From the IMG/VR virus record IMGVR_UViG_3300009701_000005, positions 15,126 to 79,125 of that record: DNA of 64,000 bases, one strand, 5' to 3'. The number at the start of each line of letters is the position of its first letter. Position 1 is the stretch's first letter. Both the position numbers and the translations under genes were made by a program. This stretch comes from a virus (lineage: Duplodnaviria > Caudoviricetes). The notes beneath the pieces were generated by a model. It saw only the letters and a program-made list of their open reading frames with translations, was not told the origin of the DNA and searched no databases. Below, one piece after another: positions 10,707 to 60,609 of the stretch.

Positions 10707-10976
10707 ATGAAACTCATCACCAAGGCAATTCTTACCGGCGTAATTCTCAGTGCTGGTGCCGTAGTTGAAAAGCTATTAACTCCAGCAGCAGCATTAATAT
10801 CCAATAAGACGACAGTTTCACAGTTGGATAATAGTGATGCAGCCTACCTAGCAGTAACCTACCTTGGTAACGGGTCTGTTCTAGTAAACATCCTTGTTAC
10901 TGCCGTGGCTTCTTTCTTAATAGTCCGGGTTTGGACTCGTAAATCTAAAAAGGTTGACAAAAATGAAGATCAGTAA
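10707..10976 (+). CDS. membrane protein, SPFH operon partner
   Basis: GAGG ribosome-binding site, ATG at 10707, two hydrophobic segments. Confidence 0.75.
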   Translation: MKLITKAILTGVILSAGAVVEKLLTPAAALISNKTTVSQLDNSDAAYLAVTYLGNGSVLVNILVTAVASFLIVRVWTRKSKKVDKNEDQ

Positions 10977-11901
10977 AATTCGTTTCCTCATGGCCGCGGC
11001 AGTTCTTTTCACAACACTTTTGGCAGGATGTACTCAGCCAAAAGCCGTTGATGAAATCAAGATCATCGGCCCTTCTGACACAGCCTTTCTGGTTGCTTTG
11101 GATGGCGACACGCTGAAGAACCAAAACAGCATGAAGTCCGCTGAGTTCCTGGAATCGGCCAAGATCAGTGCAAAACGCGTTTTGATCCCTCACAAGATCA
11201 TCAACACTTGCCCTGACTGTAACGCATGGGATTACAGCCATTACCTGGACGTTCCAACTGCTCAATTGTTCACAGTTAGCCGTGCCCCAGTGGCAAGGTC
11301 TTGGACAAGTTCAGCAACGACAGGCACAAGTGTAAAGAACGAAGCTTTCTCGGTTGAATCCAATGAATCCATCGATTTTGATATCGGTGCAACAATTATC
11401 GCTCACGTAGCAGAAGCTGACACGGCAAAGTTCCTATACTTGCATTCGGGAAGTCAACTGGAAACAGTGATCGACGGTCAAGTGCGTAACTACGTTTCGT
11501 CAATCTTGTCCCGTGAAATGGGCTCCCATAACATTGACTGGGATCGTCAAAATAAGAATGCTGTGTTCACTACGGCTTTCAACGAAACCAAGACCTTCTT
11601 TGCAGCACAAGGCATTACAATTGACAGCCTTGGTTTTACTGAAGGCATGACTTACCATGACGCGGCAATTCAAAAAGCCATCAATGCTAAGTTTGCTGCT
11701 GACATGAACGTGCAAATTGCAGAAAAGACTCTGGAAGCGGCCAATCAATACGCCCAGGCCAAAGACGCAGTTAAGGTTCAGCAAGATATCGAGAATCGTA
11801 AGCGTGAACTCGATTTACAAGCAGCGGCTATTGCCCGTTGGGATGGAAAATTGCCGACTACCAATGCAACAAGTTCATTACCATTCTTGAACTTGAAGTA
11901 A
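10954..11901 (+). CDS. SPFH/Band-7 (prohibitin-like) lipoprotein
   Basis: lipobox LAGC; central VESNESIDF..GATI.A.V, GITIDSLG; C-terminal coiled coil ending RWDGKLP. Confidence 0.8.
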   Translation: MTKMKISKIRFLMAAAVLFTTLLAGCTQPKAVDEIKIIGPSDTAFLVALDGDTLKNQNSMKSAEFLESAKISAKRVLIPHKIINTCPDCNAWDYSHYLDVPTAQLFTVSRAPVARSWTSSATTGTSVKNEAFSVESNESIDFDIGATIIAHVAEADTAKFLYLHSGSQLETVIDGQVRNYVSSILSREMGSHNIDWDRQNKNAVFTTAFNETKTFFAAQGITIDSLGFTEGMTYHDAAIQKAINAKFAADMNVQIAEKTLEAANQYAQAKDAVKVQQDIENRKRELDLQAAAIARWDGKLPTTNATSSLPFLNLK

Positions 11902-11948
11902 ATGTAGTTCGTTCAGCTAATCAACTAACAACCAAAGCGAGGTCCTTT

Positions 11949-12155
11949 ATGCTTAGGAAAAGGCCCAGGTTTAAAAGTAGGTCTGGCACCGAGGGGCGCT
12001 CTAGATCAAGATCTGGAAAATTTTTTGGAAGAACCTATAACGGCAGCACGTCTAAAGATATCAGCATTTCTTCTTCGGGATGGAGCGTTGCCGGCTGGGG
12101 ACGTTTTGTAAGTCATAGCGGTGCCCCCAGTAACACTTATTCCTCATCGGGGTAA
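11949..12155 (+). CDS. basic SxSG-repeat micro-protein 1
   Basis: GAGG ribosome-binding site; 68 aa; KSRSG, RSRSG, SSSG, SHSG, SSSG. Confidence 0.75.
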   Translation: MLRKRPRFKSRSGTEGRSRSRSGKFFGRTYNGSTSKDISISSSGWSVAGWGRFVSHSGAPSNTYSSSG

Positions 12156-12160
12156 CGGAT

Positions 12161-12373
12161 ATGACCGTGTCTAGATATAGGCGAAACTACGTACGAAAAT
12201 CCAAATCTGGTATGTGGAATAGGACGTATTCCATCTCCAGTATTATATGGAAAACGGTTAGTGGGGGACCACGAGGGCACGGTACCTCAACTTCGAATTT
12301 CTTCACTTACACCACTTCAGGGCGATACTCTCGAGGGATGTCCTTTCTGAGATCTGGAGATAATGCACTATGA
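12161..12373 (+). CDS. basic SxSG-repeat micro-protein 2
   Basis: 70 aa; SKSG, TVSG, TTSG, LRSG. Confidence 0.7.
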   Translation: MTVSRYRRNYVRKSKSGMWNRTYSISSIIWKTVSGGPRGHGTSTSNFFTYTTSGRYSRGMSFLRSGDNAL

Positions 12374-12600
12374 TTCCTAAACACAGAAGAGATTACGCCA
12401 AGAGTCAATCTGGGGTCAGAACTTACAATATAGGCTATCAATATACCTTGGCAGGTTCTGGAATGCTCATGAGGATGAGGTCAGAATCTGGTGAAAAACT
12501 CCCCGGGCGCATAGCGTGTCGTTATGTGTCAAGATCCGGGAGCCGCAGTAAGCACCTCACTCTTTCAGGTACATTTGATCAATTTGTTTCCTGGAGGTAG
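12370..12600 (+). CDS. basic SxSG-repeat micro-protein 3
   Basis: GGAG ribosome-binding site; 76 aa; SQSG, AGSG, SESG, SRSG, TLSG. Confidence 0.75.
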   Translation: MIPKHRRDYAKSQSGVRTYNIGYQYTLAGSGMLMRMRSESGEKLPGRIACRYVSRSGSRSKHLTLSGTFDQFVSWR

Positions 12601-12605
12601 CGGAC

Positions 12606-12839
12606 ATGCTAAACAGATTTAGAAAAATGCATGGCCTAAATAGAACCTTGAGCGGGCAGAGATCGAAAAAGTATTCCAAATCTGGTGGACTTTCCAAATA
12701 CATTTCCAGTAGCGGAAAACCTACCTCCTTTAATTCCCTGTCAGGCCTCATCAATAAAGCAGTATCTAGGTCCGGCGAAATCAGGGATAGGTACTACTCT
12801 TATTGTGGAAGACTAGGCCACGTTAAACAAGTTCAATAA
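12606..12839 (+). CDS. basic SxSG-repeat micro-protein 4
   Basis: GGAGG ribosome-binding site; 77 aa; five SG units at exact 10-aa spacing. Confidence 0.8.
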   Translation: MLNRFRKMHGLNRTLSGQRSKKYSKSGGLSKYISSSGKPTSFNSLSGLINKAVSRSGEIRDRYYSYCGRLGHVKQVQ

Positions 12840-12848
12840 GGATTTTCC

Positions 12849-13077
12849 ATGTTGAATAAGATTCAAAGTACGCGTAGTAGAGGCCGATCTTGTATTCATC
12901 CTCAGCCCAGGGGAATTAGTAACAAATCATTATCTGGGCAAGGCAATGCAGCCGTATCCCGCAGAGGATTAATACCTACAAAAGGATATTCTTTTGGGTA
13001 TCTATCCCTCTCGGGGGGCTAATTATAGAGCGGCCTCAATGTCAGGCCCAAGAAGTTTTACAAATTCCCGTTTATAG
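12849..13077 (+). pseudogene. basic SxSG-repeat micro-protein 5, frameshifted in a G6 tract (13013-13018)
   Basis: 57-aa ORF ends at TAA 13020-13022; removing one G extends it with ANYRAASMSG... to 75 aa. Confidence 0.6.
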
Positions 13078-13141
13078 TATTTCTAGCAGTCCCAACCGGG
13101 CAAATGCCCTTCTCTAACCTAAATTAAATTGGAGCAATACC

Positions 13142-13453
13142 ATGTTGAAAGCACCTCCTCAAGCACAAGTCATTGATGTTCCTAACGAAGGCTACATCAA
13201 ATTTCTCAACAAGCAAGTCGAAATTCGTTGCAATGTCTACATTTACACCGGCATTCTGACGGGTGTAAATGAAAAGATTCTCGAGTTGGAAAACCCTGCA
13301 ATCGTATACGAAACTGGCCCTCACGGCGACTCCAAGTACAAGGATGTGCAAGGCATTCCAGGGCCAACGTTCATCAATATGGGCTTGATCGAATCGGCTA
13401 GTTTGTCGTTTAAGACCTACGAGCCATTCAAGGCCAAGCCCGTTGCTCTGTAA
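13142..13453 (+). CDS. Sm/LSm-like (Hfq-fold) protein
   Basis: FLNKQVEIRCNVYIYTGILTGVNEKILELENP resembles Sm1; TFINMGLIES resembles Sm2. Confidence 0.6.
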   Translation: MLKAPPQAQVIDVPNEGYIKFLNKQVEIRCNVYIYTGILTGVNEKILELENPAIVYETGPHGDSKYKDVQGIPGPTFINMGLIESASLSFKTYEPFKAKPVAL

Positions 13454-13456
13454 CAT

Positions 13457-13681
13457 ATGGCCATGTTAACCAAACGAGCTACGTTGCTAATGTGGAGGTC
13501 CTTTTCTGGAATTCACTCTAAGAAATTTAGTGAGACAGAGGGTAAGCTAGGTAGATGTGCGCACTCTACCTCTGGTCAAGGGGACATATATACCTCTCAT
13601 ACGCGTAAATCTGTTAGCGGCGGGACCCCCTCCACCTACCCAAGGGTTGGCGCAGCTTGGTCTAGTAGACGTAGAGGATAA
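13457..13681 (+). CDS. basic SxSG-repeat micro-protein 6
   Basis: 74 aa; SFSG, STSG, SVSG. Confidence 0.65.
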   Translation: MAMLTKRATLLMWRSFSGIHSKKFSETEGKLGRCAHSTSGQGDIYTSHTRKSVSGGTPSTYPRVGAAWSSRRRG

Positions 13682-13698
13682 TAAAGAAAGGTAGTAAA

Positions 13699-13917
13699 AT
13701 GGGTCAAGCAAATCAACGGGGGACGCCCGAACAACGTCGAAACTTGGCAATTGCCAAGAAGGCTGAGGCACCTGCTAGCATTCCTCCTGCCACAGTTCGT
13801 CACTTGAAGGCACAAGAAATTGCCAGTTGGAATTTGGCAGTGGATAAGAAGAAGCAGGCCAAGGCAAGTCTTCAAATCGGCAGTAATATTGCCAAGAAAA
13901 AACCAGCATTATCGTAG
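13699..13917 (+). CDS. small Lys/Ala-rich basic protein
   Basis: AAGG ribosome-binding site; 72 aa. Confidence 0.7.
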   Translation: MGQANQRGTPEQRRNLAIAKKAEAPASIPPATVRHLKAQEIASWNLAVDKKKQAKASLQIGSNIAKKKPALS

Positions 13918-14288: not shown

Positions 14289-14363
14289 GGGAACGTGATG
14301 GAATTGGTAGACATGCCGGGGTTGTACTCGGCCTTACAGGTTCGAAGCCTGTCGTTCCCTCCA
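14289..14363 (+). tRNA. pseudo-tRNA with a 6-nt anticodon loop
   Basis: GGGAACG/CGTTCCC-T-CCA; Leu/Ser-type D-arm; loop GTTGTA; short variable region; T-loop TTCGAAG. Confidence 0.7.
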
Positions 14364-14946: not shown

Positions 14947-15025
14947 ACCACAGTATCTCAACGGGCTTCTACCCCGTAGCCGAGTAATTGGATCAATGGG
15001 AGTTCGAGTCTCTCCTGTGGTGCTA
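14947..15025 (+). ncRNA. D-armless tRNA-like RNA with TCT at the anticodon position
   Basis: ACCACAG/CTGTGGT acceptor; 7-nt linker replaces the D-arm; ACGGG-CTTCTAC-CCCGT; variable hairpin with GTAA loop; GGGAG-TTCGAGT-CTCTC. Confidence 0.65.
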
Positions 15026-15064: not shown

Positions 15065-15832
15065 ATGGCTAAACTTCACGAACTCCTAGCAGCAGAAAAA
15101 ACAGTTCTGGCTCAATCCGCTAAACTGTTCACAGAAACGACGGCTAAACTTGGTAAGTCTCACTTTTGGGAAGGGTTCAACAAGACCCTGACTCTGGTGG
15201 CCGACAGCCCGACCAAGGCTGCAATTGAAGAAGCGGCAAAAGAAGTTAAACTCCTGCCTACAAATGTTGCAGATACTTTGGCGTATTTCGTCAACTTTTG
15301 GTCAAAATCAGAAGACCTGCTGTTTTCCAAAAATGTCAGCAATCAGTTTGCAAAAGCTGATATAATTGTTAACGGAATCGTTTTGGTCACGGATGTTCCC
15401 GTTGACGAGTTGATGGGTCTTGAGCATCGCCTGGAAGGTTTGCGTCAAATGTTGGCACAAATGCCGACTCTGGATGCAAGTAAGACTTGGAGCAAGGCCG
15501 AAGACCTGGGGCCTAATATTTGGCGCTCAGAGCCTGAAGTAACAATCAAGACTGACAAGACAGTGGACGCGGTAGTATTGTATCCAGCAACTGACAAATT
15601 CCCTGCCCAGGTGAAGGAATTCAGCAAGGATATTACCATCGGATCTTTTAAGTTGATCCGTACCTCTGGCGCGGTTACCTCGGTTGCTAAATCAGACATA
15701 TTGAGCAATGTTGACAACCTCATCATGGAAGTCAAAAAAGCGCGTACAAGAGCGAATGACATTGAAGCAAAATCCCGTCAAATCGGCAAGACTTTGATGG
15801 ATTTCATCCTTGCACCGTTGTCTGCGGAGTAA
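15065..15832 (+). CDS. helical hypothetical protein (MAKLHELLA... type)
   Basis: 255-aa ORF with a GAGAG ribosome-binding site, flanked by structured RNAs. Confidence 0.85.
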   Translation: MAKLHELLAAEKTVLAQSAKLFTETTAKLGKSHFWEGFNKTLTLVADSPTKAAIEEAAKEVKLLPTNVADTLAYFVNFWSKSEDLLFSKNVSNQFAKADIIVNGIVLVTDVPVDELMGLEHRLEGLRQMLAQMPTLDASKTWSKAEDLGPNIWRSEPEVTIKTDKTVDAVVLYPATDKFPAQVKEFSKDITIGSFKLIRTSGAVTSVAKSDILSNVDNLIMEVKKARTRANDIEAKSRQIGKTLMDFILAPLSAE

Positions 15833-57694: not shown

Positions 57695-59071
57695 ATGACA
57701 ATTAAGGCAATAGCCCCCCATATTAGCTGCGTTTGTGATGCTGATGAAATTGAACAGGCAAAGAACGATGGCTATCGTGAAATCTATACGATTACCACTA
57801 AAGGTATTTTCAAAACCCATATTTTACGTGGAGAAAACCGTTGGATCTGTGCAAAAGTTACTGAGATTAAGGGTTACGTTGAGCCCCTGTTCAAAGAAGA
57901 TCATTCCACATTCCTACCTGCCGGTAAAATCCCTTTCGTTTTGTTTCAACAAGTAGAGGCGTTTTTCCGTGCGGTTATTGCAACTAAGGGTGCGGCCCTG
58001 GAAGCAATGATTTTCATCATGTGGAATAAAGACCGCGGATACTATTTGCACGTTCCAAAGCAAACGGTTAGTGGCGCAAGTGTTACTTACGATTACGAGA
58101 ACTTTCCTTCTCAAGATACAACAGTCGTAAATATTCATAGCCATGGGCATATGAATGCATTCTTTAGCGGAGTTGATGATAACAATGACTCCACTAAAGT
58201 TCAGTACTCTGGTGTGTTCGGTAAGTTCCAGGATCCTCAATGCGTAACAGTATGGCGTTTCAATTACTATACTACTAAGTACGCTGCAACTGCTATGGAT
58301 ATCTTTGAAGCTCCAACATCGGCAGAAATCCCAAACGAATGGGTAGACATGGTTGAAGAACGCCAGACTGTAATTCCTAAAGTGTATTCGTATCAGGGCA
58401 ATAATAGCAAGGCGAAAGATAATGGGAAGAATGACAAGGGCGGTAAGCGTCGCCAACAACACTTGACTTTCCAGGGAGAAGAGGATGGCGAGTTTGAAAA
58501 TTTCAATGAGTTCATGGATCGTTATAACGGTTACGAGGGTGCGAGTGTCAGTAGTCCTGCCATAACCCCTTCTCAATCCAAAGCATTGATCACTATTAAT
58601 GGGGAGCCTAATGCCTCAAAAAAAGCTCTGTCCCCTTCTGAAAAGTTCGTTTACGTTGACGGTAGATACCAACTCCGGGAGGGGATTGAAGAAGTAAATG
58701 CGTCAGATGTTGCATCTCTTTCAAAACCACGTGTCGAAGATGAAGTAGATACTGATAGTCAGGATTTTTGGGCTAATCAAAGGAAAGGTTTTGCGTTCTT
58801 AGGGGAAGATATTCCTGGATTGGATGATGGAATTGAAAGTGATGGCCTATATGAAGCTTTAGCTATAAATCATGGTAGGGACGTTGCAGATGCTTGGTTT
58901 GCCATTAATGAAGATATGGTAGTTCTTAATGGTAAAGATGACATTGTAGAAAACCTAGCCCTCGACCTAGTTCAAATGGCTTCAGAAGAAGGTCAGGCTC
59001 GTATTTTCAAGCAAATGTTTGATAATCTGAGTCCTCGTGAAAAAGAGAAAATTCAAACTCTCGGCCTTTAA
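57695..59071 (+). CDS. JAB/MPN deubiquitinase-like peptidase (PRTRC protein A-like)
   Basis: LEAM...PKQTVSGASV...NIHSHGHMNAFFSGVDD (E...HxH..S..D). Confidence 0.9.
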   Translation: MTIKAIAPHISCVCDADEIEQAKNDGYREIYTITTKGIFKTHILRGENRWICAKVTEIKGYVEPLFKEDHSTFLPAGKIPFVLFQQVEAFFRAVIATKGAALEAMIFIMWNKDRGYYLHVPKQTVSGASVTYDYENFPSQDTTVVNIHSHGHMNAFFSGVDDNNDSTKVQYSGVFGKFQDPQCVTVWRFNYYTTKYAATAMDIFEAPTSAEIPNEWVDMVEERQTVIPKVYSYQGNNSKAKDNGKNDKGGKRRQQHLTFQGEEDGEFENFNEFMDRYNGYEGASVSSPAITPSQSKALITINGEPNASKKALSPSEKFVYVDGRYQLREGIEEVNASDVASLSKPRVEDEVDTDSQDFWANQRKGFAFLGEDIPGLDDGIESDGLYEALAINHGRDVADAWFAINEDMVVLNGKDDIVENLALDLVQMASEEGQARIFKQMFDNLSPREKEKIQTLGL

Positions 59072-59142
59072 GACTTTAAAGAACTAGAGTTTTCTTGGTA
59101 TAAGAAGGGTGCTAATACCACCCTTTTTTATGGAGTTAATTT

Positions 59143-60609
59143 ATGTTTAAATATACGCCCGTTTTTGTTCCCTGTAATGTTTTCGTTATCGGGGCAGGTG
59201 GCACTGGTTCAAGATTGATCCCGTTGTTAGCTCAGTTTCTCAGAACAATCACCCGGGGTAAAGGTGAGAATGGTTGGGTTGAAAATCCTACTATTTGGCT
59301 TGTAGATGATGATACGGTTGAAGAAAAGAATTTGAAACGTCAAAACTTCATCCGCAGTGATGTTAACAAGCCTAAAGCCGTAGTGTTGGCAGAGCGCTAC
59401 CAACGTGCGTTTGAAACTCGTATCATCCCTATTACTTGCAAGGTAGATACTGGGGGCGATAACCAGTTCACTAATGTAGTATCTGAAACATTATCTGCTA
59501 TGAACCGAGGTGGGGGAGAAGTGGGTGTTAATGAACTCTTTGCTTCGTCGATGGTTATTATGTGCGTTGATTCAGTAAAAGCCCGTCGTCACATATTGAA
59601 CACGTTCTGTGTCAATTCAGCATATCGCAGCAATACCTTCTTTATCGATGCAGGTAATGAAGACGATTTTGGTCAAGTAAATTTCTTCTCTAACCATATA
59701 ATCGTAGATAACGGTCAGTATGCTGCTTTACCTGAGAAAGATAAGCTTCCAAAAAATATCATGCACAGTCATGATGTTCGTTACATCCCTATGGATTACG
59801 ATTACTATCGAAATCTTAAGGATACTAAATCTACTGCAAGTTGTGCTGATTTGAATCAGACGTTGGCTATCAATAATGTAATGGCTGCTAACATTATGAT
59901 GATAGTTCAAAATTACTATTACCGTAATACGATGACTTACAATTGTGTGAGAATCGATATGAAAGGTGGTAATATGACCGAGTTCAACGACTTTCAAAAT
60001 TTCAAGAACAAGGCAATTGACATTAATCTATTCAGAACTTTACAACGTTATGGGGAACAGGTTGAAGAGGCAGATGGAACTAGCACACACATGAGTTTCC
60101 TCAATTCTACTACGGAAGTGGATTTGACAACTAACGTATATGGACCCTTGAGGAAAAAGGTCAGGGAAGCTGAGATTGCAGAAAAGCAACTTGAAGTAAA
60201 GATGAAGTTGGCTCAAGAAGCTGCTGCTAAGGCCAAGGAAGTTGAGACAGTAAGGGGGGATGAAGAGGATAAACCTTCCGTTACCTTAGGAGAACTACCA
60301 GGACTGCCAACTACTGCTAGGACAGAGGGATCTGTGCCGGATAATGGCAGATTGTATTTCAACGGCATACGCCCCAACCCTGAGACACCTGAAACTATTA
60401 TGCGGCAAGAAATATTGGATCAGCTTTTGGTTTTAAATAGACCTCTCAATCATGTTAATTTTGAGGTATCCGTAGTTCCAGCAGTTGCAAATCTGGGAAT
60501 ACCTCCCGCGCCACCTACCCCTGGGGTTGCAACACTACCGCCTTTGGAGATTATTCCACGGGTTCGTAATGTAGTAGATCTAGCCCCTATTTCAGAACGA
60601 GCAATTTAG
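59143..60609 (+). CDS. E1/ThiF-family adenylating enzyme
   Basis: VIGAGGTGS, DDDTVEEKNLKRQNF, CVDS, IDAGN, SCA. Confidence 0.9.
   Translation: MFKYTPVFVPCNVFVIGAGGTGSRLIPLLAQFLRTITRGKGENGWVENPTIWLVDDDTVEEKNLKRQNFIRSDVNKPKAVVLAERYQRAFETRIIPITCKVDTGGDNQFTNVVSETLSAMNRGGGEVGVNELFASSMVIMCVDSVKARRHILNTFCVNSAYRSNTFFIDAGNEDDFGQVNFFSNHIIVDNGQYAALPEKDKLPKNIMHSHDVRYIPMDYDYYRNLKDTKSTASCADLNQTLAINNVMAANIMMIVQNYYYRNTMTYNCVRIDMKGGNMTEFNDFQNFKNKAIDINLFRTLQRYGEQVEEADGTSTHMSFLNSTTEVDLTTNVYGPLRKKVREAEIAEKQLEVKMKLAQEAAAKAKEVETVRGDEEDKPSVTLGELPGLPTTARTEGSVPDNGRLYFNGIRPNPETPETIMRQEILDQLLVLNRPLNHVNFEVSVVPAVANLGIPPAPPTPGVATLPPLEIIPRVRNVVDLAPISERAI

Follow-up and report, generated by a model that had tools for sequence, protein, structure and literature searches.

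Six short, serine- and glycine-rich open reading frames (ORFs) surround a gene for an Sm-like protein at positions 11949 to 13681 of a 64-kb window from a 79-kb, single-contig phage genome that seems to come from a moss metagenome (Caudoviricetes; IMG/VR record IMGVR_UViG_3300009701_000005, of which the window, meaning here the whole stretch that was analyzed, spans positions 15126 to 79125). The question raised by this locus is whether such ORFs are genes at all and, if they are, what their products have to do with an Sm-like protein. Our analysis shows that they are real microprotein genes under protein-level constraint, that the partner gene encodes an Sm-fold protein, and that genes of the two kinds are linked across phages. 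We consider it probable that a cassette widespread among phages is found here in diverged form and with six peptide genes, a cassette in which the Sm-like protein would serve as a hub and the microproteins as its tails; this degree of confidence attaches mostly to the identification and much less to the mechanism.

The coding nature of the ORFs is apparent from the statistics of the locus. The first five (ORF1 to ORF5) cover 98% of the 1074 nucleotides (nt) between 11949 and 13022; in 5000 dinucleotide-preserving shuffles such coverage averaged 19% and never exceeded 89%, and at least five ORFs of at least 55 amino acids (aa) arise in just 0.08% of 5000 such shuffles. Pentamers coding for Ser-Gly (SG) are enriched at the locus relative to the window, TCNGG 5-fold and TCTGG 7-fold, and all but one of the 25 that fall within the ORFs are in frame. 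The SG dipeptides, 24 in number, are spelled by 16 different codon pairs, with Ser encoded by both TCN and AGY (AGC or AGT) codons and Gly by all four of its codons. At the protein level the motif S-x-S-G occurs 18 times versus 1.8 expected from composition-preserving shuffles, while the reverse dipeptide GS is depleted (3 versus 10 expected). The distances between Ser residues are enriched at lags 2, 8 and 10 (z of 3.9 at lag 2 and 4.7 at lag 10) and depleted at odd lags, and in ORF4 the SG dipeptide is repeated at an exact 10-residue spacing over four consecutive steps. The pooled products consist of 18.5% Ser, 12.6% Gly, 11.8% Arg, 6.4% Lys and 5.0% Tyr, with Asp and Glu together making up 2.8%; individually they range from 14 to 26% Ser and from +9 to +14 in net charge, and no other plausible ORF in the 79-kb genome is as dense in SG. 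An AlphaFold2 (AF2) model of the ORF1 product lacks secondary structure (predicted local distance difference test score, pLDDT, of 53), consistent with a disordered polypeptide, and no transmembrane or signal segment is evident by eye in the peptide sequences. As for the DNA itself, Tandem Repeats Finder detected no tandem repeat at the locus and a repeat search gave only families of 10-18 nt at chance level. The folding energy of the corresponding RNA is no better than that of shuffles (z of -0.65 and -0.48); we also considered a structured RNA or tRNA-like array and rejected it, as there is no tRNA or Rfam match within 11800-13800 even at an E-value of 1. These results bear out a preliminary description of the locus, which had depicted the ORFs as rich in Ser, Gly, Arg, Lys and Tyr and poor in acidic residues, as punctuated by (S/T)-x-S-G units often 10 aa apart, and as conserving SG at the level of the protein rather than as a DNA repeat. 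Its label of "RS-like" has to be given up, since neither RS (13 versus 9.3 expected, p 0.11) nor SR (11 versus 9.3, p 0.32) is enriched.

All the genes of the locus are on the plus strand, seven small co-oriented genes in total, between a gene for an SPFH/Band-7-like lipoprotein and one for an uncharacterized 72-aa protein (13699-13917). ORF1 (11949..12155; 68 aa, net charge +11) has a GAGG box 6 nt upstream and codes for the leader MLRKRPRF, followed by KSRSG and a total of five SG units. ORF2 (12161..12373; 70 aa, +11) has a leader ending in RRNY and followed by KSKSG, and its stop codon overlaps the start of ORF3 in an ATGA (12370..12600; 76 aa, +10; leader MIPKHRRDY). ORF4 (12606..12839; 77 aa, +14) is preceded by GGAGG at 8 nt and has five SG dipeptides at exact 10-aa steps. 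ORF5 (12849..13022; 57 aa, +9) is apparently truncated by an extra G in a G6 run at 13013-13018, its former tail lying out of frame at 13018..13077. The Sm-like gene (13142..13453; 103 aa, net charge -1) comes next, and ORF6 (13457..13681; 74 aa, +10) starts 4 nt past its stop codon, which is the canonical site of the peptide gene in other phages. Thus, the six co-oriented ORFs of the preliminary description are all found where it had placed them, though its size range of 68-77 aa does not hold for ORF5. Its remark that most of them have ribosome-binding sites also stands: ORF1, ORF3, ORF4 and ORF5, as well as the Sm-like gene, each have a Shine-Dalgarno-like box (GAGG, GGAGG or AAGGA) 6-10 nt upstream.

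The identity of the partner gene was established from structure. With 20 homologues as the alignment, AF2 produced a model of the 103-aa protein with a pLDDT of 89.6, showing a short helix (H17-21) followed by the strands of a bent β-sheet. In a Foldseek search with this model the top 45 PDB matches are all Sm/LSm proteins (best E-value 8e-4), and VIA-align superimposes residues 10-91 on 20 Sm/LSm chains with Z-scores of 9.9-8.0, Hfq structures scoring 6-7. The product of 13142-13453 is therefore confidently predicted to adopt the Sm/LSm fold, with an N-terminal helix and a bent five-stranded antiparallel β-sheet, as had been supposed at the outset. The protein has 57 homologues in a large protein collection, mostly of 93 aa, with E-values down to 2e-26 and none of them annotated, and a further search recovered 203 homologues in IMG/VR; by profile search the family comprises 469 clusters at 50% identity. 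Judging from the sequence collections, the family appears to be found almost only in uncultured phages: the nearest ESM Atlas clusters are mostly viral (86-100% of members), and a tblastn search of 50,697 GenBank phage records returned as its sole match one uncultured "Bacteriophage sp.". Net charge is 0 or less in 95% of the Sm-like proteins (median -2). Some relatives are tandem double-Sm-domain polypeptides (P0060, P0069 and P0112), which would fit a ring-type oligomer, and the other long representatives are N-terminal extensions or chimeric calls.

The linkage of the two kinds of gene was then assessed by scanning 84 loci with Sm-like homologues for SG-rich small ORFs, and counted on the 73 that have at least 200 nt of sequence downstream of the Sm-like gene. 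In 65 of these 73 IMG/VR loci the Sm-like gene is followed by a peptide gene whose start is no more than 150 nt away; the commonest spacing is a 4-nt overlap of stop and start codons (ATGA), and the number of peptide gene copies per locus ranges from 1 to 6. This is the recurrent linkage of homologues to SG-rich peptide genes that the preliminary description had proposed as a check. Nine contigs (L001, L004, L030, L036, L043, L072, L082, L089 and L090) end 50-120 nt past the Sm-like gene, probably because short-read assemblies break in the hexamer array that forms the body of the typical peptide gene, and the true frequency of linkage is therefore likely to be above 65 of 73. In nearly all of the 84 loci a small ORF opens directly behind the Sm-like gene. 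The typical peptide begins with a leader rich in Lys and Arg, whose last residue is aromatic, and continues as a chain in which every second residue is Ser and the others are Gly, Arg or Trp. Leaders were listed from 69 distinct peptides, and their presence was scored by a simple rule in place of a short-leader hidden Markov model (HMM), which was hampered by bias correction; the rule derived from other phages matches four of the six window ORFs and only 1 of 588 other ORFs. The family medians of 63 aa and a net charge of +10 are likewise comparable to the 57-77 aa and +9 to +14 of the window copies. Around the 84 loci the neighborhoods are variable and accessory, with no further gene family recurring among them, and the cassette of Sm-like and peptide genes is for this reason self-contained. 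The converse search started from the repeats: of 105 TCTNGG arrays located purely by their pattern, 53 turned out, once the HMM had been iterated, to lie directly behind an Sm-like gene. Among the arrays without one, many have the same leaders and probably represent additional copies. We also noted arrays that sit inside larger ORFs, open for 237-373 codons beforehand and without an upstream Sm-like gene (in L137 at about 8341, L162 at about 3766 and L188 at about 625), and the same hexamer repeat may have arisen also in unrelated proteins. One locus (L005:3501-4270) has the order Sm-like gene, Ser-X peptide gene and second Sm-like gene, a tandem duplication of the module. The window differs from the usual layout in that five of its six peptide copies lie upstream of the Sm-like gene.

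A comparison of the window with typical members of the family helps decide at which level, protein or nucleic acid, selection acts. The body of the canonical peptide gene is an array of TCN-NGG hexamers encoding (Ser-Gly/Arg/Trp)n, and within any one array the hexamers differ from each other only at the first position of the NGG codon, the other five bases being fixed; the X codons are GGG (757), TGG (568), AGG (413) and CGG (127), with NGG in about 86% of the units. The dominant Ser codon differs from array to array (TCT in 61, TCG in 16, TCA in 13 and AGC in 6) and Ser is always encoded, and the start codon of the peptide gene, its overlap with the Sm-like stop codon and the leader peptide are conserved across phages. 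We favor a protein-level reading on account of both observations, namely the switching of the Ser codon between arrays while Ser stays and the conservation of start, overlap and leader. The window copies are without such an array, which is why we regard the locus as a diverged variant of the module and not as a typical member. The arrays here have eroded to non-repetitive coding sequence with randomized synonymous sites; what has survived is the open frames, the basic leaders with their final aromatic residue, the S-x-S-G units, the charge and a size close to 70 aa, with acidic residues nearly absent and with Tyr and Lys partly in place of Trp and Arg. As the repeats have eroded and yet the protein features have been kept, the product of these genes is a protein. 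Perfect hexamer arrays hide whether protein or nucleic acid is selected, and the eroded window in this respect constitutes a natural experiment that supplies the clearest evidence in favor of the protein. Its copies also indicate which features of the peptide matter and, being non-repetitive, can be synthesized for biochemistry.

Further indications come from a relative of the phage, an 81.6-kb contig in the public run X3, which is about 91% identical across 10918-13510. For the microproteins this comparison rests on the pattern of insertions and deletions (indels), the listed substitutions (40 of 238) being all within the SPFH-like gene. In the relative ORF1 has a pair of -1 and +1 indels 6 nt apart that restores the frame, and ORF3 has three indel events (-6; -2 and -1; +2 and +1), each with a net multiple of 3; when these indels are applied to the window sequence the frames of both ORFs stay open and the stop codon of ORF3 is kept. 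These frame-preserving indels, along with the retention of the leader, S-x-S-G, length and charge, point to selection on the protein. The G6 run in ORF5 is one G shorter in the relative, which lengthens the 57-aa product to 75 aa, a size in line with the other microproteins, with the gain of one S-M-S-G unit; a seemingly stray TCAGG at 13042 falls in this restored tail frame. Hence, ORF5 of the window looks truncated by a homopolymer slip or frameshift, by phase variation or by an assembly error. The leader of ORF6 (13463-13520) is present twice in the relative, each copy being followed by 134-173 nt that cannot be aligned to the window, while the sequence past 13676 is about 97% identical. 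The ORF6 body turns over far faster than its surroundings, and is a local hot spot of body replacement and copy-number change.

Taken together with the complementary charges of the two partners (median -2 for the Sm-like proteins versus +10 for the peptides), these features suggest how the cassette might function. The mildly acidic Sm-like protein would form an oligomeric hub, to which the peptides may attach as detachable, basic and disordered tails that bind both the hub and nucleic acid. The target of the assembly in the course of infection would be nucleic acid, most likely RNA, which it could thereby bind and either remodel or sequester, with the multiple divergent copies and their rapid turnover serving to tune or diversify its activity, or else reflecting an arms race. 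It is conceivable, though we put this forward only tentatively, that the pair represents a split Sm ribonucleoprotein, in which a ring and interchangeable, fast-evolving "sticker-and-spacer" microproteins (with Arg, Trp and Tyr set among Ser and Gly) act on RNA, possibly as a condensate or sponge, to seize or shield the RNA metabolism of the infected cell. Were this so, the repeat-free copies of the window would display the essential features of the peptides, and the two-part Sm ribonucleoprotein would constitute a new class of RNA-acting phage factor, parallel to the tailed Sm proteins of eukaryotes.

Several observations weigh against the interpretation of the locus as an Sm hub with protein tails. 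None of 20 Sm-like members scanned matched the Pfam LSM or Hfq families, the sub-threshold matches among them being to Phage_Hfq (PF23874; E-value 0.11, in 2 of the 20) and DUF6897 (E-value 0.017), and a profile search against PDB sequences reached no significant match to solved Sm proteins, the best having an E-value of only 0.8, to SmF. The alignment, as we read it, shows a G-x-L ... N pattern but no evident Arg-Gly of Sm2; as the Arg of the canonical Sm2 "RG" pocket thus seems not to be conserved, RNA binding through a canonical pore is doubtful. No natural fusion of Sm-like protein and peptide occurs among the loci or the long representatives. The X codons of canonical arrays nearly always end in G, and a single array keeps to one Ser codon throughout. 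Such uniformity could reflect a constraint at the level of the nucleic acid; alternatively, the arrays could be very young, with only the selected toggles between Gly, Arg and Trp having spread. Finally, automatic gene calls leave the five-ORF stretch empty (L085:1760-3001, corresponding to window 11901-13141), and no run among those listed as holding sequence of the locus is recorded as RNA.

The most serious of the other explanations turns the relationship of the partners around: the peptides would be cationic effectors against a host target, such as the membrane, the nucleoid, the ribosome or a defense sensor, and the acidic Sm-like protein merely their chaperone, neutralizer or delivery partner, with hypervariability as the signature of an arms race. 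Several features are what one would expect of such effectors, namely the charge of +9 to +14 combined with aromatic residues, the replacement of the ORF6 body between phages with flanks that are 91-97% identical, the copy number of 1 to 6 in a cassette of variable accessory neighborhoods, and an acidic Sm-like family lacking a significant Sm1/Sm2 sequence signature. Nevertheless, we judge it unlikely: the peptides have no transmembrane or signal segment by eye and no PADLOC or PHROGs match, no lysis or defense gene is tied to the module in the loci examined, and in known biology the Sm fold is overwhelmingly an RNA-binding or ribonucleoprotein scaffold. That the microproteins are instead substrates, one of the roles raised in the preliminary description, either precursors of multi-core ribosomally synthesized and post-translationally modified peptides or decoys whose S-x-S-G serines are phosphorylated, glycosylated or ADP-ribosylated or which are cleaved to units of about 10 aa, is suggested by the architecture of a leader followed by repeated core-like units, by the exact 10-aa units ending in SG in ORF4, and by the strong over-representation and polarity of S-x-S-G, with GS depleted. 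However, across the 84 loci the module has no conserved neighbor that would be a maturation enzyme, kinase, transferase or protease, the neighbors in the window are the SPFH-like lipoprotein, small uncharacterized proteins and a DUF7873 protein with no such enzyme adjoining, and canonical members of the family are without a 10-aa period, which together leave this proposal a slim chance.

The remaining explanations dispense with functional microproteins. In one, the nucleic acid is the functional entity, the hexamers or UCUGG-type motifs being a series of sites at which the Sm-like oligomer binds mRNA or DNA, for instance in autoregulation or as an RNA sponge, and the frames being incidental. 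The canonical units, with five of six bases fixed, NGG in about 86% and uniform Ser codons per array, could be read in this manner, as could the 7-fold enrichment of TCTGG that still persists at the window locus. Yet Ser-Gly is maintained in the window through 16 codon pairs including AGY, at spacings that are multiples of 3 and not of 6 and within one open frame; the indels in the X3 relative preserve the frame; Ser is kept when the codon of an array shifts to AGC; the start codon overlapping the Sm-like stop and the leader are conserved; and RNA structure is not unusual. We accordingly regard a nucleic-acid function as quite improbable. The most skeptical alternative, that the frames are open by chance alone in an island of tRNAs or other non-coding RNAs, has in its favor that the automatic gene caller left the stretch empty, that there are no sequence homologues and that tRNA genes flank the region; in light of the shuffle test, the in-frame motifs, the ribosome-binding sites, the frame-preserving indels and the family-wide grammar, its probability is close to negligible. 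The lack of homologues is itself attributable to automatic gene calling, which skips microproteins of this kind, so that they are systematically absent from protein databases. No sequence homologues of ORF3 and ORF4 were found, the ESM Atlas gave no usable match for ORF3, neither the microproteins nor the Sm-like protein had a match above threshold in Pfam, PHROGs or PADLOC, and the sole blastn match of the region was a 58-nt tRNA-like stretch.

The hub-and-tail arrangement that we prefer has partial precedents. In eukaryotes SmD1, SmD3, SmB and LSm4 carry basic disordered Arg-Gly tails. Like these, the phage system combines an Sm-fold core with a low-complexity, positively charged and disordered Arg/Gly-rich segment; unlike in these, the tail is made as a polypeptide of its own through coupled translation, frequently from multiple copies of the gene, and has Ser at every second position or in S-x-S-G units and Trp or Tyr as well as Arg and Gly, and the phage Sm-like family has neither significant similarity to Pfam LSM nor any fusion that we could find. 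A second parallel is offered by the archaeal Borg elements, whose Sm ribonucleoproteins have disordered N-termini made of tandem repeats and retain the Sm1/Sm2 motifs (PMC9879509). Here too an Sm protein of a mobile element is associated with fast-evolving perfect nucleotide repeats, of a unit divisible by three, that give rise to disorder, but the Borg repeats are fused to the Sm protein whereas those of the phages are separate microgenes, and in the window are no longer repeats. Bacterial Hfq and Phage_Hfq (PF23874) share with the phage protein the small β-barrel of the Sm superfamily, as the Z-scores of 6-7 to Hfq structures indicate, but their sequence matches are sub-threshold, Sm/LSm structures outscore those of Hfq and the phage family is acidic. 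Proteins with SR/RS domains are similar in their basic low-complexity Ser/Arg-rich sequence, but the microproteins show no enrichment of RS or SR and have no RRM, and Arg/Trp-rich cationic peptides resemble them in combining aromatic and cationic residues. A further relative is the canonical module of an Sm-like and a Ser-X peptide gene: its Sm-like protein belongs to the same family as that of the window locus, its peptide gene is positioned and coupled alike, and its peptides agree in basic leader, charge and length; the window locus differs in that the Ser alternation is reduced to an excess of even lags and to S-x-S-G units. Literature searches, including those with literal repeat strings, found no description of the pair, and no Pfam, PHROG or PADLOC family covering either partner was found. 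Neither the Sm fold nor the concept of an Sm core bearing a basic disordered tail is novel, while the split, translationally coupled and hypervariable microprotein partner in phages is new, as is the repeat-free, six-copy variant of the window with five copies upstream of the Sm-like gene. The family concerned is large, with about 470 clusters of Sm-like proteins coupled to a hypervariable basic microprotein in nine of ten IMG/VR loci examined.

Some other features of the window may be recorded. The lipoprotein gene that forms the upstream flank extends over 10954-11901 (phrog_200, E-value 5e-11), and the DUF7873 protein (E-value 2e-68) is encoded at 15065-15832, 1.4 kb downstream of the module; neither gene is kept beside the module in other phages. 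Shortly downstream of the module ARAGORN predicts a tRNA at 14289-14363, to which it assigns an undetermined two-base anticodon, and Rfam a weak one (34.8 bits) at 14947-15022 that is absent from the ARAGORN output, so that tRNA-like genes of aberrant type lie near the module. An alternative genetic code was considered and rejected, the long structural genes of the window being open under table 11. The window also encodes a T4-type terminase domain, ThyX and several tRNAs. At 57695-60609 it contains adjoining genes for a JAB-domain protein (458 aa) and a ThiF/E1-like protein (488 aa), a pair as expected for a phage ubiquitin-like conjugation cassette.

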